A stretch of DNA of 24,434 bases from a virus (Duplodnaviria; Caudoviricetes), in IMG/VR virus record IMGVR_UViG_3300009505_000068, positions 1-24,434 of that record. One strand, given 5' to 3'. The first letter of the stretch is position 1; every line of letters begins with the position of its first letter. A program made the position numbers and the translations under genes. Under the pieces are notes generated by a model, which made no database searches, was not told the origin of the DNA, and saw nothing but the letters and a program-made list of their open reading frames with translations. Shown piece after piece: positions 3,577-18,844 of the stretch.

Positions 3577-6500
3577 ATGGCAAGAACAATACAATCCCCT
3601 GGAGTAGAAATAAAGGAAGTAGATCTTTCTTTACGACCTAATTTACCCGTAGGCACAACAGTGTTTATACCCGGTTTCGCGAACCAAGGACCAACTGATG
3701 AGTTACTCACGGTGTCCAGCTTGAGCGAATTCGAACAAATTTATGGTCTACCACAAAACGCTGCAGAGCGATACATGTATCATTCTGTCAAGGCTGTATT
3801 TCAAAGCCCTGCCAACGTCCTGGTATCTAGATTGCCATACGGTCAAGGGGCAGGAGCAACAGTTGCTGACAAATACAGTGTTCAGGTGTATCCAGTCATT
3901 CCTCGTCCAATTATCGTTGATGGTGCTGCACCAGAGATCAATTCAATCGAGAAGGATACTAGAATTGTAGCATGGCACCCAATTGATGACAATGCAGTTG
4001 ACGCTGGAGGGGATTATGTAGTAGCGCAAGCAGCATCTGGTCAATTTGACACAACCGCTGATATTATAACCACCGCTACCGGTTCAGACAAGAACGCATG
4101 GACAATAGAGGTTAACCCCGGGGCAGCTGATAATGATAACACTTTTGATTCAGTATCTGGTATATTTACAATTAACAGTACGGCTGCTAACTTGAACGGA
4201 AGTGCAATTGTAGCTCGTATTAATGGTAATTTTTCTTCTCAACTCTCTGCCAATGGCGGATTGGAAGACACACCAGGGGTTAAAGCAACTGTAACAGATC
4301 AAGGAGCAACAGTAACGGCTGACAACGAAGGAGTCATTGGTAACGTGACTGTTACCGCTGTACCTGGATCACAATCAACAGTAACAGATCAAGGAGCAAC
4401 AGTAACTGCTGACAACGTTGGTACAGCTGGTGATGTGACTTTAACTGCTGATAGTATCGAAGATGTTGATGCTCTAGTATTAGCACACAACGCATCCAAC
4501 CCAGGTAACACATTAACTGTTGTTAATGGTGGTACAGAAGTACCTACTAATGATTTAGTTTTAACTGGTGGAGTTGACAGTAAAGATGTTGACACTTTAA
4601 TATCTGATTTTAACACTGCTAATCCAACCAACACATTAACTGTTGTCAGTGGAGGTACAGAAGTACTTGCTACTGATTTAGTTTTAACTGGTGGGGCAGA
4701 TTTTATTGCAGCAGCTGATACTATCAGCACTCAAACAGTTATCACATTTGCTGGTGGAGTCGATTCCGGTTTAAGTACTAAAGTAGTTCCTGTCGGTGAG
4801 TGGATATTCAGTGAAACTAACCCCGGAGGTTATCAAGGAACAACTGTTAAGGATGCCGTTGACAGTGTTTTGGCTGGTATTGAGTCATTAAGTGCTCTAT
4901 CGCAAGACAACCTATACTGGACAGAAGCAGAAGCAGGTGATCCATTGAGTATTCCAGCTTTAAATGCATATGAAATACCTGAGGTATCAGATTTAATTGC
5001 TGATGCTGTTAATAGTGTTGGGTGGGACTTGAGCGCTAGTGATCGTTACTACTTAGGTGAACCTAGTAATATCGAGCTTACAAACGACGAGTTTCAAAAG
5101 ACAATCAAAGGTGAGATCAAGCTTAGCCAAGCAAATGCAGGTAAGTTAGAGAATCAAAAATTCACAACATACAACGATCTGCTCACAAAAGGTGGAGCAG
5201 GAATGATGATCGTAAATGACAAGAAATTCGTTCTCAATGAGAAGTTTGAAGGTTACTATATCGGTATTTCTGACAACACTAACTTGAACCCTGCTACAGA
5301 TTTTGATTCAGTAGGACAACTCAAATCATTGAGCAAAAAGCTTGGTGGAACAACTGGTGGTTACGTCAATGTACCGGATTCCGGAATAAAAAGCCGTTTA
5401 ACATTCTCACTTAGTGCTGGATTCATCTTCGATCAATACGGAAACAAACAACAAGTAGGATTAGATGGTAGTATGAGTGAGGCTCTAGAAAACTTGAGTG
5501 AATTCGACCTCAATACTGATGAGTTCAGTGATGTGTTAACACTTGCTGTATTTAAGGTACGTCAATCAACACTAGAACCTGATGCTACTAAGCTCGATTA
5601 CCTCGTTGCTGATAGTGTTATTGGTAGTGTCAATTACTTCAGAGAAGCATTCAAATCTACCGGTGGTACAGCCACTAGTTACTTCATCGAGAGTGAAGCT
5701 AGTAACAGTAACAACCTTTACATGAAGTTCAATGAAGGTATCTCTAAAGACGCCGGAAATTGGTTAGACGAGAATGGTTATCCAACACGTAAGATCAGAG
5801 TTTTCCCTTCTAAATCAGTTAGCTATTACGATGAGCTTAATACAGGTCAACAAGAAGCAACAACACAAGAAGTCAACGATTTCAAAGTTGCTCAAGCGTT
5901 TCTCAATGGAAATGAAGAGAAAGAAGACCGACTATACATCAAATCTTGGCAAGATTTACAAGCTTCTAGAAAAGCTCAAATCAAGCACGGTAATAACGTG
6001 TATCCACATGGTGTATATCGCAAGCAAGCAGCTGCAGCTAAAGAAACCGGTAACATTCCAGCTAAATTAGATCGTATCTTCGAATTAGCAGACAATTTTG
6101 ATCTGTTCCCGATTGATATCACAATTGAGAGTGGTTTAGGTACAGTTTATGTCGGTACAGATGGTGGTACAGTTGAGAGTTTTGATGATGAAGAGTTCTT
6201 CAACATTGGAGATCATGTAGTTAGTAGCACCGGATTGAGCGGAAGTGGATTGTATACAACCAAGTTGATTGATAACAGAAGTGAAATCAATTACTTGACA
6301 CAATATGACACAATTTTCGATACATTCAAGAGTTTCAGTCAATTCGCAAGAAAAGACAATATCTTTATTGCTGATCCATTGAGATACATCTTTGTACAAG
6401 GTAGAAACAGCAAGACTCTAACAAGTCAACAGCGTGAAGCCGGAGTAAACTTCTCACAACACATTTACTGGCCGTTGCGTCACATGATGACCGGTGGTAC

Positions 6501-7146
6501 CAAGAATAGTAGTTATTGCTGCACTTACGCGAACTGGGGATTCACAAACGATAAAGCACTTAACCGTGGCGTTTGGGTACCAATGAGTGGATTTGCTGCA
6601 GCAGCAATGGGTAATACGGATAGTAACTTCTATCCATGGATCGCACCTGCAGGTTTCACAAGAGGCTTAGTGAGTGGTATTCAAGACCTTGCGTTTTATC
6701 CAAAACAGAAGGAAAGAGATCAGTTATACAAAATTGGATTGAATCCAGTTGCTAACTTTCCTAATGAAGGATTTGCAATCTTCGGTCAAAAGACCATGCA
6801 AGCTAAACCAAGTGCTTTCGATCGTATCAACGTTAGAAGGTTGTTCTTATACCTACAAAAGGCCACAATGAATACAGTTAAATACTTCGTATTCGAGCCG
6901 AACACATTATTCACACGGACACAAGTATTAAACGTTCTTCGTCCAATCTTCGAGGAGGTAAAGAACACACAAGGTATGTACGATTACCTGCTCGTTTGTG
7001 ACGAACGAAACAATTCACCAGATGTTATTGACCGCAATGAGCTTGTCATAGACATCTACATCAAACCTACACGCGCTGCGGAATTCATTCTAGTCAACTT
7101 TTATGCTACTAGAACTGGTCAAGACTTCAGTGAATTAGTGTCCTAA
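3577..7146 (+). CDS. Contractile tail sheath protein (T4 gp18-like) with large insertions, 1189 aa
   Basis: N-terminal SPGVEIKEVDLS, GFANQGP, FEQIYGLP; C-terminal PWIAPAGFTRG, RDQLYKIGLNPV, FGQKT, SAFDRINVRRLFL, FEPNT, CDERNN, IKPTRAAEFI. Confidence 0.97.
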   Translation: MARTIQSPGVEIKEVDLSLRPNLPVGTTVFIPGFANQGPTDELLTVSSLSEFEQIYGLPQNAAERYMYHSVKAVFQSPANVLVSRLPYGQGAGATVADKYSVQVYPVIPRPIIVDGAAPEINSIEKDTRIVAWHPIDDNAVDAGGDYVVAQAASGQFDTTADIITTATGSDKNAWTIEVNPGAADNDNTFDSVSGIFTINSTAANLNGSAIVARINGNFSSQLSANGGLEDTPGVKATVTDQGATVTADNEGVIGNVTVTAVPGSQSTVTDQGATVTADNVGTAGDVTLTADSIEDVDALVLAHNASNPGNTLTVVNGGTEVPTNDLVLTGGVDSKDVDTLISDFNTANPTNTLTVVSGGTEVLATDLVLTGGADFIAAADTISTQTVITFAGGVDSGLSTKVVPVGEWIFSETNPGGYQGTTVKDAVDSVLAGIESLSALSQDNLYWTEAEAGDPLSIPALNAYEIPEVSDLIADAVNSVGWDLSASDRYYLGEPSNIELTNDEFQKTIKGEIKLSQANAGKLENQKFTTYNDLLTKGGAGMMIVNDKKFVLNEKFEGYYIGISDNTNLNPATDFDSVGQLKSLSKKLGGTTGGYVNVPDSGIKSRLTFSLSAGFIFDQYGNKQQVGLDGSMSEALENLSEFDLNTDEFSDVLTLAVFKVRQSTLEPDATKLDYLVADSVIGSVNYFREAFKSTGGTATSYFIESEASNSNNLYMKFNEGISKDAGNWLDENGYPTRKIRVFPSKSVSYYDELNTGQQEATTQEVNDFKVAQAFLNGNEEKEDRLYIKSWQDLQASRKAQIKHGNNVYPHGVYRKQAAAAKETGNIPAKLDRIFELADNFDLFPIDITIESGLGTVYVGTDGGTVESFDDEEFFNIGDHVVSSTGLSGSGLYTTKLIDNRSEINYLTQYDTIFDTFKSFSQFARKDNIFIADPLRYIFVQGRNSKTLTSQQREAGVNFSQHIYWPLRHMMTGGTKNSSYCCTYANWGFTNDKALNRGVWVPMSGFAAAAMGNTDSNFYPWIAPAGFTRGLVSGIQDLAFYPKQKERDQLYKIGLNPVANFPNEGFAIFGQKTMQAKPSAFDRINVRRLFLYLQKATMNTVKYFVFEPNTLFTRTQVLNVLRPIFEEVKNTQGMYDYLLVCDERNNSPDVIDRNELVIDIYIKPTRAAEFILVNFYATRTGQDFSELVS
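4291..4417 (+). repeat. Direct repeat pair A (37 bp core, 90-bp period) in sheath gene
   Basis: gtaacagatcaaggagcaacagtaac(g/t)gctgacaacg at 4291-4327 and 4381-4417, 1 mismatch. Confidence 0.95.
4507..4694 (+). repeat. Direct repeat pair B (65 bp core, 123-bp period) in sheath gene
   Basis: aacacattaactgttgt...gatttagttttaactggtgg at 4507-4571 and 4630-4694, about 6 mismatches by eye. Confidence 0.95.
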
Positions 7147-8889: not shown

Positions 8890-9783
8890 GTGAGTGATGC
8901 GTTTAAATTCAAGATATACCTGCCATCCAAGCAGAGATACTATAACTTCAGTGAAATAACCAACAGAGACTACCTTGATATAGTAAAGATAATATCAAAC
9001 TCTGATAACGATCAACTACTAACACACTTCAATGATATTATATATCGGTTATCAGGAAAGAAGGTGATACCCGCTAAAATCTCTCGGATTGATAGTTTTT
9101 GTATACTGATCAATCTATATATCGTGTGTGTCTCAAATGTATTAGAGATAACTCCAAAGGACCAGCAAATAAGTAAGCTCAAGATAGACTTATACGATAT
9201 ACTTGACAAGGTAACCAACTTTGACTTCGAGTATACACATCTTCTAGAGATCAGCGACGATATAAAAATTAAATTAGCCACTCCATCTACAATATACGAA
9301 GCATCAACTGACAATCTGATCACTAGTGTTATAGACACTATTCATATCACCGGGAAGACATTTAACTTCTCACAATTTGACCAGAAACAACAACAATCAC
9401 TAATCGACAACATCACTAGTGATGTAACTACACATATAATCCGGAAGATCAAAGAGATAGACCAGAACTATCAGCTCGATGTGATAAAATATGGCCAGGA
9501 CCCACCAACGATTGTAACATTAAACTTGTATAACAACAGCATGTTCGAATTACTAAAAGTTATCTACAACTCCAACTTGGAAGCAGAGTACTACTATAGA
9601 TACTTTATGGCTAAGCATATAAACTTACCTGGTGATCAGATAGAAACATCAACACCAGCTGAAATTCAAACATATCTACAGTTTTACAAGCGTGAGCGTA
9701 AAGAGGAAGAAAAGGCCCGTGAGAAAACCGAACGAGCACAAGGTGGTACTGTAGGAGCCTCACCGATGATGCCTGGTATGTAG
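8890..9783 (+). CDS. Baseplate hub assembly protein, gp26-like N-terminus with gp51-like C-terminus
   Basis: N-term IYLPSKQRYYNFSEIT resembles gp26; C-term YYYRYFMAKHINL...IETSTPAEIQTYL resembles gp51 (yy..f.lm.h.....ie.m.P.E..iY); GTG start. Confidence 0.55.
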   Translation: MSDAFKFKIYLPSKQRYYNFSEITNRDYLDIVKIISNSDNDQLLTHFNDIIYRLSGKKVIPAKISRIDSFCILINLYIVCVSNVLEITPKDQQISKLKIDLYDILDKVTNFDFEYTHLLEISDDIKIKLATPSTIYEASTDNLITSVIDTIHITGKTFNFSQFDQKQQQSLIDNITSDVTTHIIRKIKEIDQNYQLDVIKYGQDPPTIVTLNLYNNSMFELLKVIYNSNLEAEYYYRYFMAKHINLPGDQIETSTPAEIQTYLQFYKRERKEEEKAREKTERAQGGTVGASPMMPGM

Positions 9784-9804
9784 GTTGATTTATATAAACA
9801 TACC

Positions 9805-9812
9805 GATAAATA
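9805..9812 (+). promoter_or_regulatory. Late promoter GATAAATA
   Basis: 3 nt/6 nt before tandem ATGs 9816/9819; TTGATT at 9785-9790. Confidence 0.7.
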
Positions 9813-9815
9813 CAT

Positions 9816-10601
9816 ATGATGTCAAACAATAGTTCATATAAGAATCTTTTAGCTAGTATTAACGAGCTCAACAATAAAGACACACTGAGTGTATATGTAC
9901 CGAGTGTTGGTAATGATGTGCCATTTGCACCACTAACAGTCAAGCAACAGAAATTGTTACTATCCAGTAGCGTTGATACAGACTTTGAAAACTTGTCGTT
10001 CATGAACGCTATCAACAGTATCATATCAACTAATTGTAAGCAGAGTGTTCAAATACTAACGACTGATAAACCTTTAATCGTGTTACAATTGAGAGAACAT
10101 GCGATCGGTGGTACACTTAAGATTGAAGAGGATGACACTACTCATGAGATCAACTTGAGTGAGCATATTGCTACTTGTAAATCACTTGATGCATCAATTT
10201 CCGATAACCTCGAGATTGAGCATGATATCATCAAGATCACATGTCATGTACCTGATATAGCTACAGACACCAAGTATAACAAGCAATTCACAAAGAAAGT
10301 TCAAAAGCCAAAATCAAAAGAAAAATTAAAAGTCACGGATGTGATTGGAGATATATATGTATCTGAGTTGGTCAAATATATACAGGCGATAATCATAGGT
10401 GAGGATGTAGTCACTCCAGGAGTTGATGTCAATATATCAGACATGGTAAATGTATTTGAATCCCTGCCTATGCAAGTCAGTAACAAATTAGCAGCCCTTG
10501 TTAAACAAACCCGTAAATTTGAAATAGCATGCTTGACTCCAGAATCTCTACCAGAAGGAGTGTCCATTAGTATAGACGCTAGCCTATTCACCACTGAATA
10601 G
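9816..10601 (+). CDS. Baseplate hub assembly protein (T4 gp26-like)
   Basis: VYVPSVGNDVPFAPLTVKQQKLLL matches gp26 N-terminal pattern; DKPLIVLQLREHAIG; ends ASLF; precedes tape measure. Confidence 0.7.
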   Translation: MMSNNSSYKNLLASINELNNKDTLSVYVPSVGNDVPFAPLTVKQQKLLLSSSVDTDFENLSFMNAINSIISTNCKQSVQILTTDKPLIVLQLREHAIGGTLKIEEDDTTHEINLSEHIATCKSLDASISDNLEIEHDIIKITCHVPDIATDTKYNKQFTKKVQKPKSKEKLKVTDVIGDIYVSELVKYIQAIIIGEDVVTPGVDVNISDMVNVFESLPMQVSNKLAALVKQTRKFEIACLTPESLPEGVSISIDASLFTTE

Positions 10602-10631: not shown

Positions 10632-13600
10632 ATGGAAGATAAACTAGGAGATTTAATTACCGCTCTAACTGAGCTGGTCGAAAAGCTTGATGACAAGCCT
10701 ACTGGTGAGGTCACATCAAAGGCTAGGTTCAACCCGGATGATATGTTTGCACCTACCGAAGAGCAGGTATCAGCTAAGGAGAACAAGGAGTTAGCTAAAG
10801 ATATCGCCAAAGAAAACGCGAAAAATAACAAAGAAAAGAAAACATCCCGAAAAATACTCAAAGATGTAATGCCGGTATCAGTGGTTAACTTTGATAGCAA
10901 AGCGTTGAAGCAGTTAGGTGAAGTGGTGTCAAATAACATAACTGATAGGGTCACTAAGGACACTGAAGCACCTAAAGACAAAGCTCCTAGTTGGCTCAAG
11001 TCACTAAAAATGATAGGATACGGAGCCTTCGCATTGATTATAGGACCGATAATCGCCTTGTTTGCATTCTTTGAGGAGATCGGAAAACAGAAGTGGTTTT
11101 TATCTCTGAAGGAATTCCTAAAAAAGAAAGTAGGAGGTCCGTTAGCAAAACTATTTAAACCTATAACATCATTCTTCGATAAGTTCAAAACTCGGATTGG
11201 TAATTTATGGAAAAGTGTCAAGAAGTTTTTCAAACCAGTCACGGACACACTTAAAAGTATAGGCACAAAGATCAAGAATATTGGTAAATCTATCAAGTCT
11301 TTATTGAGACCTATATTCGGTGGCGCTACAAAGCCCGGGTTGTTCACTCGCTTGAAGGACATAATACTGAAGAATCCTGTGATAAAAGGAATGACAGCAT
11401 TTTTCAAGGGACTTGGTAGCGTATTAGGTAAAATATTTCTACCCATCACCATCATAATGGGTGTGTTTGACTTTGTGACTGGGTTTATGGATGGTTACGA
11501 AAAAGAAGGATCGATCATCGATGGAATAGAAGGTGGAATCACAAAAGTGCTTGATACTTTGATAGCCATGCCGTTGGATATGTTAAAATCAGCGGTTAGT
11601 TGGATCCTCGGCAAGTTTGGTTTCACAGAAGCAGAGAAGACACTAGACGCATTCAGTTTTAGCACCTTGTTGAGTGATATGATTGGTGGTCTCTTTAAGA
11701 CATACAAGGATATATTTGCCAAGATCACTAGTGTACTCACAGGCATATGGGATTCATTTATAGGTATATTCACTTCAACGGGAGAGGCGGATGAAAAGGG
11801 AATGGTCGAGAAAGCGCTGGTTTTCGTTTATAAAATATTAACCCTACCGTTAGATCTGATAAAGGATGCAGTAAGTTGGCTTCTGGGTGCATTTGGATTC
11901 GAGAATGCAGAGAAATCACTAGATAGTTGGTCTTTCGCCAAGATTTATGAGGATCTGATCGGGGCTATATTCGGATTTATGGAGGGTGCATTCGAATTCG
12001 TCAAGTCACTGTTCACAGAGCCAAAAAAGGCGTTTGAGAAGATAGGAAAGTGGTTTGACAAGTTGTTTGCTGACCCAATAGGAACAATCAAAGAGTTATT
12101 ACCAAAATGGATGACAGACTTTGGAACTTGGGTATGGGACACACTTATAGCACCTGTCGCTAAGTTGTTTACAGCTACAGCTGACAACCCAGTGGCGGCA
12201 AAAGCAGCATTCAAAAAACTATTACCAAAATGGATGTCTGGGTTTGGTGATTGGGTATTTGATTCATTAATACTACCAATATCACAATATTTCGACAAAC
12301 TACTCAACTCTACAAGCGCATCAGAAATACTATCTGCATTGATTCCACAGTGGTTGAAAGATACCGGAAAATGGGTGTATAACAACACAATACAACCACT
12401 GATGGATATATTCTCTGACATTACTAAGGACCCAAAAGGATCAAAATCTGCGTTTTTAGAGATGTTACCAGATTGGATGACCGGTATAGGGGGATGGGTA
12501 TTTGACGAGGTTATAGCCCCAATTGCAAAATGGTTTACAGACTTTGCTGATCCTAGTGTAGGTTTTACGGAACTCCTTCCAGACTGGATGTTAGATGTAG
12601 GTAAATGGGTATATAATACGTTGATAAAACCAATTGGAGATTTAATTACATCACTACTCGATATAGACCTGGTTGGCATGTTGAAGAGCAAGGCAAAAGA
12701 CCTCCTCCCCAAAGCAGGATACGAACTACTCTTTGGTTCTGAAGAAGAAGAGGCATCCGGTAAAGCTGCTGAATCACGTGAAGCTGCAACTAAAGCCACG
12801 GCTTCGGTCGCTGGTTTGAGTGAGACTGCTCAAAAGACAATAGCCAAAGCTCGTGCGAATATAGAGGATACAGTTGGTGGAGATAACACAGCTGATCGCA
12901 CTAACGATCTAATTGATTCCATGAAGAAAGCCATGGTAGATGGAAAAGGTAATGAGTCTGTAACCAAAAAACTATTAATTGAATCCGGGGATTACGACGC
13001 ATTGCTCAAGACTTCAGGGATGGATGAAAAGGACTTCATAAAGAAGATGGCGAAAGGTTATGAGTATGGGATGGTTTACGACTCAGTTTCGGATGCTGGT
13101 GAAGACTTTATTCACAAGGATGGTGGTATGGGTGACATAGCAATGCAAATCGCTAACCAAGAGGGTGAGCATAAAAGGTGGGTAAGTTTAGTCAATACAT
13201 ACGCAAAAGTTCTCAAGGATGAAGGATTAAAGATCGCTGAGTTTCAATACCCATGGGCAACACTAGCTGACAAAGATTCAATAACTAGTGATATACTAGC
13301 CGGATACAACCTCATGTATGATGCTCTTGATGTTGAGACAGATGATGGTAGAGCATTCGCACGAGCTTTGGAGAAAGTAGGTATACACAAGGCCATGAGA
13401 GCAGCTAAGCCAGTTCAAGTTGAAGCACCAGAAATGAACGATTTTATATGGCGCCCTGGTCAAAAACCAATGACATTTAGCAAGGGTGATATTCTGATAG
13501 GATCACATGAAGATAACATATCACCAAGTACACCAGGGAAATCCGATTCCTCTGGTAAGGACATGATCAATAGAATGGATAAAATGGTTGAACTGATGAC

Positions 13601-13778
13601 CGAACACTCAGGTATACATACCAAGGTACTGGAAGTGTTAACAGAGTCTGGTTTGATTGACAAACAAGGTAATACAGTAGTTAACAATGGAGGAAACAGC
13701 ACTACCGTCAACAACTCAGTTGCCGAGCCAAGTATAATGGACTTTCGCGACCGAGTAGTAGGTCGATTATCAAAGTAA
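10632..13778 (+). CDS. Tail tape measure / baseplate hub protein (gp29-like), 1048 aa
   Basis: Long helical protein with hydrophobic segments, W/F-periodic repeats, C-terminal NTVVNNGGNSTTVNN; follows gp26-like chaperones. Confidence 0.85.
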   Translation: MEDKLGDLITALTELVEKLDDKPTGEVTSKARFNPDDMFAPTEEQVSAKENKELAKDIAKENAKNNKEKKTSRKILKDVMPVSVVNFDSKALKQLGEVVSNNITDRVTKDTEAPKDKAPSWLKSLKMIGYGAFALIIGPIIALFAFFEEIGKQKWFLSLKEFLKKKVGGPLAKLFKPITSFFDKFKTRIGNLWKSVKKFFKPVTDTLKSIGTKIKNIGKSIKSLLRPIFGGATKPGLFTRLKDIILKNPVIKGMTAFFKGLGSVLGKIFLPITIIMGVFDFVTGFMDGYEKEGSIIDGIEGGITKVLDTLIAMPLDMLKSAVSWILGKFGFTEAEKTLDAFSFSTLLSDMIGGLFKTYKDIFAKITSVLTGIWDSFIGIFTSTGEADEKGMVEKALVFVYKILTLPLDLIKDAVSWLLGAFGFENAEKSLDSWSFAKIYEDLIGAIFGFMEGAFEFVKSLFTEPKKAFEKIGKWFDKLFADPIGTIKELLPKWMTDFGTWVWDTLIAPVAKLFTATADNPVAAKAAFKKLLPKWMSGFGDWVFDSLILPISQYFDKLLNSTSASEILSALIPQWLKDTGKWVYNNTIQPLMDIFSDITKDPKGSKSAFLEMLPDWMTGIGGWVFDEVIAPIAKWFTDFADPSVGFTELLPDWMLDVGKWVYNTLIKPIGDLITSLLDIDLVGMLKSKAKDLLPKAGYELLFGSEEEEASGKAAESREAATKATASVAGLSETAQKTIAKARANIEDTVGGDNTADRTNDLIDSMKKAMVDGKGNESVTKKLLIESGDYDALLKTSGMDEKDFIKKMAKGYEYGMVYDSVSDAGEDFIHKDGGMGDIAMQIANQEGEHKRWVSLVNTYAKVLKDEGLKIAEFQYPWATLADKDSITSDILAGYNLMYDALDVETDDGRAFARALEKVGIHKAMRAAKPVQVEAPEMNDFIWRPGQKPMTFSKGDILIGSHEDNISPSTPGKSDSSGKDMINRMDKMVELMTEHSGIHTKVLEVLTESGLIDKQGNTVVNNGGNSTTVNNSVAEPSIMDFRDRVVGRLSK
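12096..12660 (+). repeat. Five ~37-41 aa Trp-rich repeats in tape measure (LLPxWMxxxGxWVxxxLIxPIxxxF)
   Basis: Units start near 12096, 12219, 12339, 12462, 12573 (periods 123, 120, 123, 111 bp). Confidence 0.9.
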
Positions 13779-13781
13779 CCT

Positions 13782-13789
13782 GATAAGTA
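13782..13789 (+). promoter_or_regulatory. Late promoter variant GATAAGTA
   Basis: 3 nt after tape-measure stop, 8 nt before ATG 13798. Confidence 0.65.
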
Positions 13790-13797
13790 TATACACC

Positions 13798-14220
13798 ATG
13801 CTACCATCAACTACAGTCATAAATGTCAATTCAGAAGAACGCGACCTAGACTATATTATAGAGAGCCTGACATCAGTCGACATGAGCATAAAGTCATATG
13901 AGGTTAAAAAGAAAAAGATCATCACTAGTGATGTGGTAGCCACCCGAAGTTCTTCATCCAAGGACTTTATATACATTCAAGTAGAAACCGGTGAGTCGAT
14001 CATATTGACTCATGATCATAAGATTTATGTAGATAGTGAATGGCTTCGCGCGGATAAAATAGCCGTAGGTTTGACAGTTCTCAACTCTGAACTCGAACAA
14101 ACCAAAATAGTGGATATGCACAAAATTCACAACGACATGACTCAAAAAGTATACAACCTAACAATAGAAGACACTCAATGTTTCTTCGCCAACGATATAC
14201 TCGTTCACAACGACTCTTAA
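13798..14220 (+). CDS. Stand-alone Hint (intein-like, BIL/PT-HINT type) domain protein
   Basis: Block A-like MLPSTTVI (Met at Cys1 position), block B ETGESIILTHDHKIYV, WLRADKIAVG, block F VYNLTIEDTQCFFAND, block G ILVHN followed only by DS-stop. Confidence 0.9.
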   Translation: MLPSTTVINVNSEERDLDYIIESLTSVDMSIKSYEVKKKKIITSDVVATRSSSSKDFIYIQVETGESIILTHDHKIYVDSEWLRADKIAVGLTVLNSELEQTKIVDMHKIHNDMTQKVYNLTIEDTQCFFANDILVHNDS

Positions 14221-14221
14221 T

Positions 14222-15526
14222 ATGGCACCTCCACCTGAAATATTCCCGGGCGGTACAACTGACGGCAACTCGGCATCAAAAGGAACCAGTGAAAATGAAG
14301 CTGATGCATTAATGCCGGGTGGTGCTAAATTTTACTGGAAGATGTTACCACCTAAAAAAGGTGGTGGTGGTGGAGCTGTTGGAAAAATGGGTGGATTTGG
14401 CCCAGCACCTAGATTATCACCTGCTAGCGAGAGTGTGGATGCAACAGCCGGTGAACACATGAGCCAAACCACCGGCCCGTCAACACATATAAACATCAGA
14501 GACACACATCACTGGACTGAATCACCAACAACATCTCGCCGCGAAGTTCCAATGTTACAATTAAAGGAACTCCGTATACTAACAAACCCTATGTTGAATC
14601 AAGTTATGAACAATATAGGTATTGCTGTTCAAACTGGTGCTGGGGTGTTTGAGTCAGTAAAGGACACAGGAAAAGAGATTAAAAAACTAATGATGGGAGA
14701 AGATGGTAAGATTGCTACTAATTTTAAGGACATCGCTAAAAAGATGGAGAAGTCTGTCGGAGACGGGCTTTCAGCCCTAGCAGATGCCGCTCTAGTCGCC
14801 AGTGAATCTGGTTATGCGAACCCTTTAAATCCTTACACTCAACTATACACAACAACACCAACGAAATTTAAGTATACATTTCCATATATGGAAGACACAT
14901 ATATGAACCGATCTGGTGGTTTTGGGGACTCAGGATCAGCCGGTCTCCTAGCTAATGCGTCGTCTATAGCTGCTAACACTATGGCTGATTTCTCTCTCAA
15001 AAAGATAGACGCTCCTGGAAGGATGATTGAAGAACCAAAAGGATTCACTTTCACAGGTAGAGAGAAATCATACACAGTCAAATTCCCACTATTCAATACA
15101 AAGGACTTTTCAGAGATAATCAAGAACTGGCAGTTCATATACCTACTAACATATCAGAACACACCAAACAGAATAACCAGGGACTTGATTGACCCACCTT
15201 GTATATACGAAGCCAGGATACCTGGTGTGTGGTACAGTAAATATTCAAGTATAACAAACATGCAAGTAGACTTTATTGGAGGCAGAAGAGAGATGTATAT
15301 GCCTGTACCGTATTTAACTAAGAGTGATGATGGTAGTATTGATGGTAAATCTGAGAGTAACTGGATACAACAAAAACGCAAGATAACAACAGTGATACCG
15401 GATGGATACATGGTGTCTATAACAATCACGGAGTTGTTCTCAGAAACTCAAAACTTCATGTATCATATGATCAAAGAGAGCATGAGCGACAAAATAAGAG
15501 TAAACGACACAACTGACCCATTCTGA
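14222..15526 (+). CDS. Baseplate tail-tube cap / tube initiator (gp48-like)
   Basis: PKGFTFTGREKSYTVKFPLFNT, IDPPCIYEARIPG, ITNMQVDF, PDGYMVSITITEL resemble gp48/CIS tube-initiator pattern; Pro/Gly-rich N-terminus; precedes LysM gene. Confidence 0.55.
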   Translation: MAPPPEIFPGGTTDGNSASKGTSENEADALMPGGAKFYWKMLPPKKGGGGGAVGKMGGFGPAPRLSPASESVDATAGEHMSQTTGPSTHINIRDTHHWTESPTTSRREVPMLQLKELRILTNPMLNQVMNNIGIAVQTGAGVFESVKDTGKEIKKLMMGEDGKIATNFKDIAKKMEKSVGDGLSALADAALVASESGYANPLNPYTQLYTTTPTKFKYTFPYMEDTYMNRSGGFGDSGSAGLLANASSIAANTMADFSLKKIDAPGRMIEEPKGFTFTGREKSYTVKFPLFNTKDFSEIIKNWQFIYLLTYQNTPNRITRDLIDPPCIYEARIPGVWYSKYSSITNMQVDFIGGRREMYMPVPYLTKSDDGSIDGKSESNWIQQKRKITTVIPDGYMVSITITELFSETQNFMYHMIKESMSDKIRVNDTTDPF

Positions 15527-15527
15527 G

Positions 15528-15908
15528 ATGATTGAACCTACAAAATACGATAAATACGAAGTACAATCACTACTAAATTTAGATAGTAAGAGTAATTTCG
15601 CAATGGAACGTATATTCAACGTGTACAAACAGCATGGAGCTAAACACTTCTATTATAATATTTTAAACCGGGTTGATTTCCCTGATAACATATCACCAAC
15701 CACATACACAAAATATCACGTCAAGCCTAATGAACCATGGACGTTGATTTCCTATAAATTTTACGCTAGAATAGATCTATGGTGGATTATAGCAGCATAC
15801 AATAAGATTGATGATACATTCACGCCACTTTCTCCTGGAACAGCTCTCATGGTACCGACACCAATGATGATTAGAAATATTATCGATGATATAAAAAACA
15901 GCGTGTAG
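15528..15908 (+). CDS. LysM-like baseplate wedge protein (T4 gp53-like)
   Basis: YHVKPNEPWTLISYKFYARIDLWWIIAAYNKIDD...LSPGTALMVP is a gp53/LysM signature. Confidence 0.85.
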   Translation: MIEPTKYDKYEVQSLLNLDSKSNFAMERIFNVYKQHGAKHFYYNILNRVDFPDNISPTTYTKYHVKPNEPWTLISYKFYARIDLWWIIAAYNKIDDTFTPLSPGTALMVPTPMMIRNIIDDIKNSV

Positions 15909-15909
15909 C

Positions 15910-17553
15910 ATGAGCAATATATCAACTATTGAAGCATGGGTCAATCAGTTAGGATTAGATCATGATAATAACGCCAAAATAGAGCAGTTTGATGATCGTA
16001 GGTTCAAGTTCAGCTTGTATCTATTAAATCAAGATGGACAAGCGATCAAGATTCGCAAAGGATCTATAGATGATCTGTATATAGAGGATAACATACTTGA
16101 CTGGTTTCATAAAGGAAGTGTGACATTCTTAAATCCTGATGATATTATAGAGAGATCTGAATCGGTTCTGTTATCTGATGCTCCTGATGGTACTCGGATA
16201 CCTGTCACACCTTACCGTTTCCGGGGTGATTGTAGAGATTTGCTGCTGTTAACATTCGAACCTCACCTGGATGAGGGTAGTATCAATGAGGGTGTGCCAG
16301 AGTTTCTCAACAGCATGATCCACACCATGAAGTTTTTGTTCTCAGTATATGCGAGTGAGGATATCACATCAGAGAAAGGAAGAATGTACAAAAAGCAAAA
16401 GTTATACTTTCATGATTATCGGTATCAGATGCTCCGAGAGAAAAATCTATACTACAGCACTGCAAAATTCTTACAAATCACAGGTGAGCATAGCATTCCG
16501 AAATATCCTGTATCTAGAATGAATAATGATCAAAGAGGCAAACCTACTGGTGAGATAGTACAAGATATCCTCAGAAGCTCTTTGATGAAGACTGACACCA
16601 AGGATATGTTCTCATATCACTGGAACGCCGGCGGTCCTAAGTTGCATTATACAAGCCCTAGTAACTTCAAAGCAATTGATGACCTGCAATATATACTGGA
16701 CCGACACGTCAGTGATGCTAGCTTTGAACATCAGCCATGCTTGTTACGATTACAACGATTCACTGAAAGATGGGAACTGTTACCTATAACAGAGTACTTT
16801 GCTAGGAGTAAGAGCGGGATCGGCCCAGGAGAATATCAGTCTGAATTCTTTCTATTGAGTAGCATGTCTGAAGCAACACCAGCTGGTATACCACCAGAAA
16901 GAAAAACGTTTGGTAAAGATGTGAAGGATGTGGCGATAAACTATCACTATCCTGATCTATCAGTTGTTGATGATTATATATTCTCCGAGATGAATGGCGT
17001 TGATTGTCAGGAGATGCTAAACAGTGTGATAACACACAGGTACACCGAAAAGACAAAGACATTTAATGTTGACCTAGCAGCCGGTAATGTAAAGACACTA
17101 CAAGAACAATTCCAACGCCTGTATGTCAATCATACGTTTGGAGGAGTAGGAGGACACGGGTTTACTAGCTGGTTATCTGATACTTCACGCTCTCAAAACT
17201 TCAATTTCCGAGTCAGTAGTTCATGGACTAATGACCCAGGTTTATCGAATACTGAATCGAGAAATAAGATATTGTTAGCGGCGTTTTTATTAGGCAATAC
17301 CATACAATTTGACGCACGAGGAGACACTACTCGGCGCGCCGGTGTGTGGATAGCGTTAGACCGGGACAATAATTATATAGAGAATGAATATGATATGAAG
17401 ATATTAGGACAATACTTCGTGACTCGAGTAACCCACCGGATCGATTCATCCGGTGCTTACACAAACAACATAATGGGAGTCAAGCCCTTCTTTTACAAGG
17501 ACGTAAACTTCGACACTAACGATCTGTTCATGAAGAACACAAACACACTATAA
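15910..17553 (+). CDS. Baseplate hub protein (T4 gp27-like)
   Basis: N-term LYIEDNIL..FHKGSVTF; C-term IQFDARGDTTRRAGVWI...LGQYFVTRVTHRI...YTNNI typical of gp27/gpD hubs. Confidence 0.75.
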   Translation: MSNISTIEAWVNQLGLDHDNNAKIEQFDDRRFKFSLYLLNQDGQAIKIRKGSIDDLYIEDNILDWFHKGSVTFLNPDDIIERSESVLLSDAPDGTRIPVTPYRFRGDCRDLLLLTFEPHLDEGSINEGVPEFLNSMIHTMKFLFSVYASEDITSEKGRMYKKQKLYFHDYRYQMLREKNLYYSTAKFLQITGEHSIPKYPVSRMNNDQRGKPTGEIVQDILRSSLMKTDTKDMFSYHWNAGGPKLHYTSPSNFKAIDDLQYILDRHVSDASFEHQPCLLRLQRFTERWELLPITEYFARSKSGIGPGEYQSEFFLLSSMSEATPAGIPPERKTFGKDVKDVAINYHYPDLSVVDDYIFSEMNGVDCQEMLNSVITHRYTEKTKTFNVDLAAGNVKTLQEQFQRLYVNHTFGGVGGHGFTSWLSDTSRSQNFNFRVSSSWTNDPGLSNTESRNKILLAAFLLGNTIQFDARGDTTRRAGVWIALDRDNNYIENEYDMKILGQYFVTRVTHRIDSSGAYTNNIMGVKPFFYKDVNFDTNDLFMKNTNTL

Positions 17554-17554
17554 T

Positions 17555-18844
17555 ATGGCGATACAAACACTAGACCCATTCATTATAGATATAAACTTAG
17601 TTAGTTCATCTGACCTTCAAAAACGTTTATCCGATTACACAAGTCTGTTGACAGCTTTCCCTAGTGAAACTGCAATGAATAGCTTGTATTGGCATACCGA
17701 CAGTCACAGTGACCCTATCACAAGTAAAATAGACTTTTTTAAAAAACTGAATGACGGTACAATCAAGTTAAAGGATAATAACGATGGTATAGTCAAAGAC
17801 AAATCATCACCCGCTGATATTAGAAACAAGAACATACGAGATCAGTTAGGTGACAACTCACACTTGAGCACATCAACTGGTGGTATATATGGTGAACCTG
17901 TTATTTCTGGTAATAATGTCGATGTGGTGAATAAAGGGTATGATAAAGAGTGGAAACCACTGTCACCTGATCAGACACACTCAAATGCAAATGCTGAGTG
18001 GAGTGTAACGAATACTGTATCTGACAAGAAACAAGAGATCATCGTACCTCCGCTAGAAGATCAATACACTGAAATAGAGCTAGAAGCCGCGTTTGGAATG
18101 AAAGACATGAGTGCTTGGTTTATATCATGGTGGATTGAGAAATTCCGTACTGCGCATGAAGTAATAAAGCGTGATCTTCTGGAATTATTAGGTGATGATA
18201 ATGAGTACTTCGTTGATTTTAGTGAGAGTGTTGGTCAGTTAAAAAACCTAAGCATGTATGAAGACACATCAACACTACCTATATATGATGATAATGTTGA
18301 AGCAATCCCAAATCACTCGATACCATCTACTACTTCGAGTATCGCACTGTATTGCGCCAGTGAAGATTCAAAACAACTGATAAATGACCTATCAAAGGAG
18401 ACAAATAAAGTTTATCGTAAAAATTTAAAACAGATGATCGAGGATCCATCAAGAGACGAGACAATCACATCAATAATGACACCTCTCGATCATAACAAGA
18501 CCAGCCATGGTCAGGATTTCGTTAGCGATTACCCACACAACACTCGCATGATCATATTCATTGAGACTGTACACAAAGCAATACAGGATCACTTGAAAGG
18601 ATTGTGGAAGGTACTTGAGTTGATAAGCAACCGTGAAAACATAATGGTTCAAGGCAAACCAGCTCAAATATCACTCAAAGTAGAGGAATACACCCATGCT
18701 GTTGATCTTCTCAAGAACAAGATAAAGAAATACTCCGCGACCAAAGGAGAGATAATTGAACCTAAGTTTGGAAGACCAACAGGATTACAACAGACATACA
18801 CAAATTCTCAAGTGTTAGGTGTACCTGGTGTGATCGAGGAATAA
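17555..18844 (+). CDS. Hypothetical protein, probably virion/baseplate associated
   Basis: 429-aa ORF coupled (1 nt) to hub gene; no motif recognised. Confidence 0.7.
   Translation: MAIQTLDPFIIDINLVSSSDLQKRLSDYTSLLTAFPSETAMNSLYWHTDSHSDPITSKIDFFKKLNDGTIKLKDNNDGIVKDKSSPADIRNKNIRDQLGDNSHLSTSTGGIYGEPVISGNNVDVVNKGYDKEWKPLSPDQTHSNANAEWSVTNTVSDKKQEIIVPPLEDQYTEIELEAAFGMKDMSAWFISWWIEKFRTAHEVIKRDLLELLGDDNEYFVDFSESVGQLKNLSMYEDTSTLPIYDDNVEAIPNHSIPSTTSSIALYCASEDSKQLINDLSKETNKVYRKNLKQMIEDPSRDETITSIMTPLDHNKTSHGQDFVSDYPHNTRMIIFIETVHKAIQDHLKGLWKVLELISNRENIMVQGKPAQISLKVEEYTHAVDLLKNKIKKYSATKGEIIEPKFGRPTGLQQTYTNSQVLGVPGVIEE

Follow-up and report, generated by a model that had tools for sequence, protein, structure and literature searches.

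An extein-less Hint-fold gene starting with Met in place of Cys1, located between the tape-measure and gp48-like genes of a T4-like tail module

A 140-aa open reading frame in a T4-like tail module encodes one Hint domain, and our analysis indicates that it is a real, conserved and apparently undescribed variant of the Hint fold, the function of which we infer. The gene would represent an intein-derived fold with neither exteins nor an N-terminal nucleophile, which selection has retained between tape measure and tube initiator in a clade of T4-like myoviruses. Comparison with its relatives indicates that the stand-alone form is old and under selection. Our best explanation, on which we are evenly balanced, is that the protein is non-enzymatic and likely acts in baseplate assembly as a binding factor where the C-terminus of the tape measure meets the gp48-like protein. 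In the accessible part of the literature, Hint domains are described as cutting or splicing the precursor that contains them. Long retention of the fold in a family that gave up this chemistry would, if this is true, clearly exemplify the conversion of an intein into a binding module and add a new accessory component to baseplate assembly in T4-like phages.

The window (the whole stretch of DNA analyzed, 24,434 nt) harbors terminase, sheath and tube genes, two PF12322 hub genes, and the tape-measure, Hint, 434-aa (gp48-like), gp53-like, gp25 and gp6 genes; the features discussed here are listed in Table 1. The two PF12322 (T4 baseplate hub) genes lie in tandem at 8890-10601, and the first ends in a part resembling the hub assembly catalyst of phrog_634. 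The tail sheath protein (1189 aa, 3577-7146) carries a large insert with an internal repeated segment at about residues 240-370. A 429-aa gene located after the 547-aa gene (17555-18844) matched no Pfam or PHROG family; it is 48% identical in distant relatives, and outgroups have extended or split versions of it. Judging by the completeness estimated for two related records, the genomes would be ~210 kb in size. The RNA runs holding the window stretch are marine, and in four RNA runs of one study the contigs cover the region evenly; such contigs cannot show transcription.

Table 1. Features of the window discussed in the text
Feature	Position	Strand	Evidence or remark
Tape measure protein, 1048 aa, candidate partner	10632..13778	+	C-terminal GL[IV]DKQGN at about 13650-13673
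Late-promoter-like box ATAAGTA	13783..13789	+	Heads the Hint/gp48-like/gp53-like/547-aa/429-aa run
Stand-alone Met1 Hint-fold gene, 140 aa	13798..14220	+	Profile matches, AlphaFold model, Foldseek
Thr49-Arg50...Asp56-Phe57, family-specific conserved segment, candidate binding surface	13942..13968	+	Sequence conservation
Block B, Thr71-x-x-His74	14008..14019	+	Thr in 35/35, His in 18/35 family rows
Block F, VYNL...TQCFFAN	14149..14193	+	Asn (Asn120) at F:4; Gln127 for the usual His; Cys128 in 16/35 rows
His137-Asn138 (14206-14211) and Asp-Ser tail	14206..14217	+	His-Asn in 14/28 stand-alone, 7/7 fused rows
gp48-like tail-tube initiator (putative), 434 aa, candidate partner	14222..15526	+	Fused behind Hint in 7/120 homologues
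gp53-like baseplate wedge subunit, encoded next in the operon	15528..15908	+	phrog_7145, E 1.8e-9

We verified the proposal of a preliminary description, made from the window alone, that the 140-aa frame is a single complete Hint domain. Pfam PT-HINT (PF07591) matched it with 42.5 bits against a curated cut-off of 27.7, and both intein splicing-region profiles were also above their cut-offs (TIGR01445, 30.1 against 24.5; TIGR01443, 24.7 against 15.6). The AlphaFold model has a mean pLDDT of 71.7, with termini below 50, and Foldseek matched it to BIL and intein chains (best E 2.7e-8, TM 0.7-0.78), showing the beta-fold of the hedgehog/intein superfamily. Met1 falls on profile column A:1, and since this first column holds Cys in 34 of the 36 ordinary Hint domains that extend to it, the initiator Met occupies the nucleophile position, as the same description had proposed. 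It was equally accurate on the TxxH of block B, the VYNL of block F with Gln127 in place of His, the His-Asn followed by Asp-Ser, and Cys128 as the single Cys of the protein. With Met at position 1, Asp at +1 and no exteins, splicing in cis is impossible, as it had stated.

The reading frame upstream of the Hint ATG extends back 12 codons to a stop and contains no Cys. Two independent contigs cross 13600-14400 without gaps and, together with 27 further proteins of the same form, rule out an assembly error. Frameshift or readthrough from the tape measure was rejected as a conserved feature because the gap between the two genes (19, 21, 13 and 11 nt) takes all three frames across relatives, and because position 1 would still be Met. 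In run X7 a relative’s contig (depth 8) differs at the Hint stop codon (window 14217-14226), perhaps giving a short C-terminal extension like those of P0026 and P0028.

A length-limited search (77-245 aa) recovered 28 proteins, 57-100% identical and all stand-alone (28/28), of which 27 are 140-144 aa long and one is a 112-aa fragment. The best 150 matches of an all-length profile search comprised 22 stand-alone clusters of 138-150 aa, two longer proteins that begin with the Hint domain, and otherwise ordinary internal Hints. In all, 28 close homologues and 21 more remote clusters have the stand-alone form. Among seven close genes, dN/dS was 0.027-0.262 in 17 of 21 pairs, with four pairs saturated and the top value resting on 2+2 changes; the gp53-like neighbor gave 0.062-0.074 (3 pairs) for comparison. 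These values, well below the neutral value of 1, rule out recent decay of the gene and agree with the earlier view that it is maintained by purifying selection. A fused form carrying Cys1, which could have pointed to assembly error or decay, was not present among the relatives. The Hint protein evolves faster than its structural neighbors, with a mean distance of 0.64 compared to 0.48 for the gp48-like protein.

We aligned 35 family rows (28 stand-alone and 7 fused, with five close relatives of the window left out); their median pairwise identity is 30%, and some rows are still related. Thr71 is present in all 35 rows, His74 in 18, His137 in 22, Asn138 in 23, the His-Asn pair in 21 and Cys128 in 16. 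In ten rows both His74 and His-Asn remain, and six rows have none of His74, His137 and Asn138. One of these six, L054, also lacks Cys128 and is directly syntenic with the window. Position 1 is Cys, Ser or Thr in 0/35 rows, Cys occurs at F:4 in 0/35, and Thr at +1 in 1/35. In comparison, the ordinary Hint domains (the other 126 matches) keep the block-B His in 199/209, the terminal His in 212/225 and the Asn in 217/224 cases, in a set picked by similarity to the profile that may favor intact ends. TxxH, Cys128 and His-Asn are kept without exception in the 28 close rows, as are many non-catalytic columns. The conservation of these residues, which the preliminary description had put forward as a check, looks intact only in the subclade of the window. 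Its suggestion that the protein processes or cross-links others in trans or makes a reactive succinimide is, as a conserved job, not supported, given the six empty rows, including syntenic L054. The alignment suggests that the catalytic chemistry is dispensable in the family. Residual chemistry may persist in some lineages, since His-Asn occurs in 14 of 28 stand-alone rows and the TxxH and His-Asn are invariant in the close rows; clipping of the Asp-Ser tail in the window copy may still take place but would be incidental.

Other residues are characteristic of the family. Arg50 occurs in 34/35 family rows compared to 16/156 ordinary Hints, and Phe57 in 29/35 compared to 11/176. His108 is found in 27/35 rows and is outside the six commonest residues at that column in 207 ordinary Hints; Asp56 and Thr49 are likewise conserved. 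We propose that Arg50, Asp56, Phe57 and His108 may form a new binding surface.

The 434-aa protein encoded downstream matched no Pfam or PHROG family. Its model (pLDDT 65) aligned with a baseplate-cup chain of Klebsiella phage KP1 (best VIA Z 8.7, rmsd 5.9, 190 aligned), the top 13 matches of that comparison are all tail, baseplate or injection-system entries, the best Foldseek E was 6.5e-3, and an Atlas lead gave PF11091 (T4_tail_cap) on 19% of cluster members. The name ‘gp48-like’ is reasonable because the model matches tube-initiator and tube chains and because of the PF11091 lead, and we assign the gene with moderate confidence to a gp48-like tube initiator (gp48 or gp54). A PDB sequence search with the gp48-like alignment yielded nothing significant, a search of 50,697 phage records yielded no match and no cultured relative, and no gp48-like locus was found in bacterial and archaeal genomes.

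Through the gp48-like gene we located 30 viral loci: the Hint gene lies directly upstream in 5, the upstream DNA is missing in 2, and 23, many of them near-duplicates, have no Hint gene. Six metagenome loci also have the Hint gene directly upstream, and synteny between tape measure and gp48-like gene, which the preliminary description had put forward as a check, was observed in L046-L051, L053, L054 and L056-L058; the locus of the distant Hint member P0054 was not found. As a proxy where DNA was absent, 19 of 120 Hint proteins share the longest-contig size with one of 104 gp48-like proteins, compared to 0.31 expected from shifted sizes. A tree of the gp48-like protein, built from 46 of 126 rows after leaving out near-duplicates and most unlabelled rows (all 126 were also treed with FastTree), placed all Hint-linked rows in one branch (SH-aLRT 99) and five Hint-less loci outside. 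A gp48-motif scan added one new outgroup locus among 5, without Hint. Hint-less L055 is nested among the Hint-linked rows, under a branch of support 100, and therefore reads as a loss of the Hint gene; the record is a fragment, and the gene could lie elsewhere in the genome. L055 thus appears to build its tail module without the gene, suggesting that the gene is not essential clade-wide. In two other loci (L067:12801-14847 and L069:12995-14961) the clamp-loader gene seems to be in two pieces, and weak Hint-like matches lie at the interruption, an arrangement reminiscent of a split intein that encloses another ORF.

The Hint domain is fused to the N-terminus of the gp48-like protein in 7 of 120 gp48-like homologues, and in two of these the remainder after the Hint domain is 50% identical to the gp48-like protein of the window. 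All seven fusions lack the block-B His and keep His-Asn, which is directly followed by Met in four. On the gp48-like tree they fall into two groups of a single branch, in which split forms occur as well; on the Hint tree, where four of them were included, they form one group (support 0.91). The fusions are therefore probably derived, from one or two events. Because His-Asn is kept, the fused forms could free the gp48-like protein, putatively by Asn cyclization. Fusion could be an accident of the 1-2 nt gene gap.

We compared the three neighboring proteins for clues to a partner. Between the window and L053 the tape measure is 96.9%, the Hint protein 99.3% and the gp48-like protein 68.7% identical, and the swapped block in L053 begins right after the Hint stop codon; Hint identity thus goes with the tape measure across this recombinant. 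The segment from 14222 to 17500 and its counterpart L053:6887-10251 (gp48-like, gp53-like and 547-aa genes) are 69-84% identical in phages that are otherwise 92-98% identical. In the pairs L048/L051 and L053/L050 the gp48-like proteins are 93% and 90% identical and the Hints 71%. This pairing of alleles speaks against a tight Hint-gp48 interface. The distances of the two proteins correlate at 0.44 over 27 pairs; for the 18 distant pairs the value is 0.23, which 128 of 2000 permutations reached or exceeded. On the other side of the gene, the GL[IV]DKQGN segment at the tape-measure C-terminus is present in 6/6 aligned Hint-bearing rows, the distant ones being 25-34% identical overall. In L055 exactly this segment is replaced, and the outgroups lack the motif; the co-loss of gene and motif concerns one lineage. 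A scan for the motif returned 50 loci, namely 5 known Hint loci and 45 unrelated contexts, and no new case of co-loss. The gp48-like protein of L055 differs in 6 of 129 conserved columns, with no clear lost motif. The tape-measure C-terminal segment is, in our estimate, a likelier partner than the gp48-like protein; the linkage may be simple proximity.

The preliminary description had given the Hint gene a late box of its own. The ATAAGTA box is real, and we presume it to be ‘late’ because it resembles the T4 late consensus, but in Hint-less L055 and L060 this box immediately precedes the gp48-like gene, so that it is the promoter of the operon and not specific to the Hint gene. ATAARTA lies no more than 45 nt upstream of 10 of the 23 gene starts examined; none of the four genes after Hint has it. 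These arrangements suggest that a late promoter and its operon already existed when the Hint gene was inserted between them. The distance to the gp48-like start is 1 nt in the window, as previously described; the two genes overlap in L054 and are 2 nt apart in L056 and L057.

In our preferred explanation, the Hint protein would be made late, together with the tube initiator, and would bind non-catalytically at the hub, at the meeting point of tape measure and tube initiator, either as an assembly chaperone (like T4 gp26/gp51) or as a small hub subunit. We read the fold as re-used as a non-enzymatic binding partner because it has nothing to splice and because catalytic residues are lost in many relatives; the ‘structural or decoy’ option raised earlier fits these data. 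The gene would derive from a phage mini-intein, NrdJ-1 being the closest solved sequence. We offer more tentatively, and with some doubt, the specific version in which a domesticated selfish splicing domain became a tail-morphogenesis pseudo-enzyme, with Arg50, Phe57 and His108 gripping the tape-measure GL[IV]DKQGN, and would occur either as a separate gene or as the N-terminal part of the tube initiator, from which it would free itself.

It is unlikely that a non-catalytic Hint protein acts outside tail assembly, by binding a host or rival-phage factor, for example as a decoy, and is placed here only for late-promoter expression. Such a role would suit a gene that leads the operon directly behind a box predating it, is dispensable in L055 and evolves faster than the gp48-like gene, but the gene occupies the same single place in every locus seen, is fused solely to the gp48-like protein, and in L055 is missing along with the tape-measure motif. 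Selection for C-terminal self-cleavage, with an ancestral Hint-gp48 precursor from which the tube initiator was released with a fixed N-terminal end, the split copies being its relics, seems improbable to us. The fused rows lie within split lineages, a split form occupies the deepest labelled branch, the Met after His-Asn in 4/7 fusions is as expected from a lost stop, and the split copies are under purifying selection with nothing to release. These observations stand against the retention of His-Asn, without the block-B His, in 7/7 fusions, and against two reports, as far as the accessible parts of the papers go: a Cys1-to-Ala variant of gp41-1 gave mainly C-cleaved product (PMC7664689), and His F:13 is dispensable in some inteins (PMC4031507).

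A vestigial or regulatory leader ORF, kept mainly for translational coupling of the gp48-like gene, would account for the tight or overlapping gene junctions and for the loss in L055, and we give it little weight: the length is steady at 138-150 aa, Arg50 and the residues of the fold persist at an identity of 30%, dN/dS is 0.03-0.26, and Hint-less relatives have the same box before the operon and no leader. Least probable, and very much so, is an enzyme that processes or cross-links tail proteins in trans through Cys128 or a C-terminal succinimide. The invariant TxxH, Cys128 and His-Asn of the window subclade (28/28 rows) and the enrichment of Cys128 over ordinary Hints (16/28 stand-alone rows compared to 9/226) would agree with it; no nucleophile is conserved family-wide, however, L054 is syntenic without any of the candidate residues, the position of the class 3 Cys (F:4) is Asn here, and inteins are described as single-turnover in the accessible part of PMC4031507. 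The family provides natural controls in its split, fused, catalytically empty and gene-less versions, along with one candidate partner motif, and small recombinant proteins would suffice to test the idea, with no need for phage culture.

Searches of the accessible literature turned up no description of a tail-module Hint gene that lacks exteins and starts with Met1. Within that scope, a term search of the accessible text of PMC7824862 gave no whole-word match, and the non-canonical inteins of bioRxiv 10.1101/2025.01.02.630785 concern, in the part available, endonuclease architecture. The Hint protein weakly matched 4 phage records, two of them over 84% of its length at 27% identity; hypothetical proteins of two Ruminococcus phages (records PV036417.1 and PV036440.1) match at this coverage and identity. 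An Atlas cluster near the Hint query bears AXH and intein labels. The AXH domain (PF08517) is a non-catalytic interaction module of animal nuclear proteins that is grouped with the Hint families in Pfam. A Pfam search of the Hint protein gave no AXH match, and no paper linking AXH and Hint was found in the literature searched.

Among solved structures, NrdJ-1 (PDB 8UBS) is the best sequence match (E 1.6e-15), and the Hint gene has the fold and blocks A, B, F and G in common with phage class 1 mini- and split inteins (NrdJ-1; gp41-1, 6QAZ). The window copy carries the Thr B:7, His B:10 and terminal His-Asn of class 1. It differs in having Met1 and not Cys or Ser, Asp and not Cys, Ser or Thr at +1, no flanking exteins, and the whole domain in one gene, so that the N- and C-terminal profiles both fall on one ORF and not on split-intein halves; its family differs by the loss of catalytic His and Asn in many orthologues. 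The likeness to type A BIL and PT-HINT domains (PF07591; 2LWY, 6TMM) lies in the PT-HINT score, the top fold matches, a His-Asn without a +1 nucleophile, and the VYNL. According to the accessible part of PMC4031507, a type A BIL generates a thioester at its N-terminus and cleaves between the protein fragments that flank it, whereas the Hint protein has no N-terminal nucleophile and is stand-alone in 28/35 rows and an N-terminal fusion domain in 7/35. Class 2 (KlbA) and class 3 inteins resemble it in having no Cys or Ser at position 1. The same part of PMC4031507 gives class 2 as Ala1, Ser G:6 and Cys+1, where the window protein has Met1, His137 and Asp139, and gives the class 3 nucleophile as Cys at F:4 (WCT motif), which is Asn120 here. 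Since the nucleophiles required by these definitions, as given there, are absent, the protein falls outside classes 1, 2 and 3 and outside working type A BILs. For function, the closest comparison is with T4 gp26 and gp51, small accessory factors in baseplate hub assembly according to the accessible part of PMC3004832: they fill a role of the kind that we propose for the Hint protein but are unrelated in fold, and PF12322 is represented in this phage by two separate genes that precede the tape measure.
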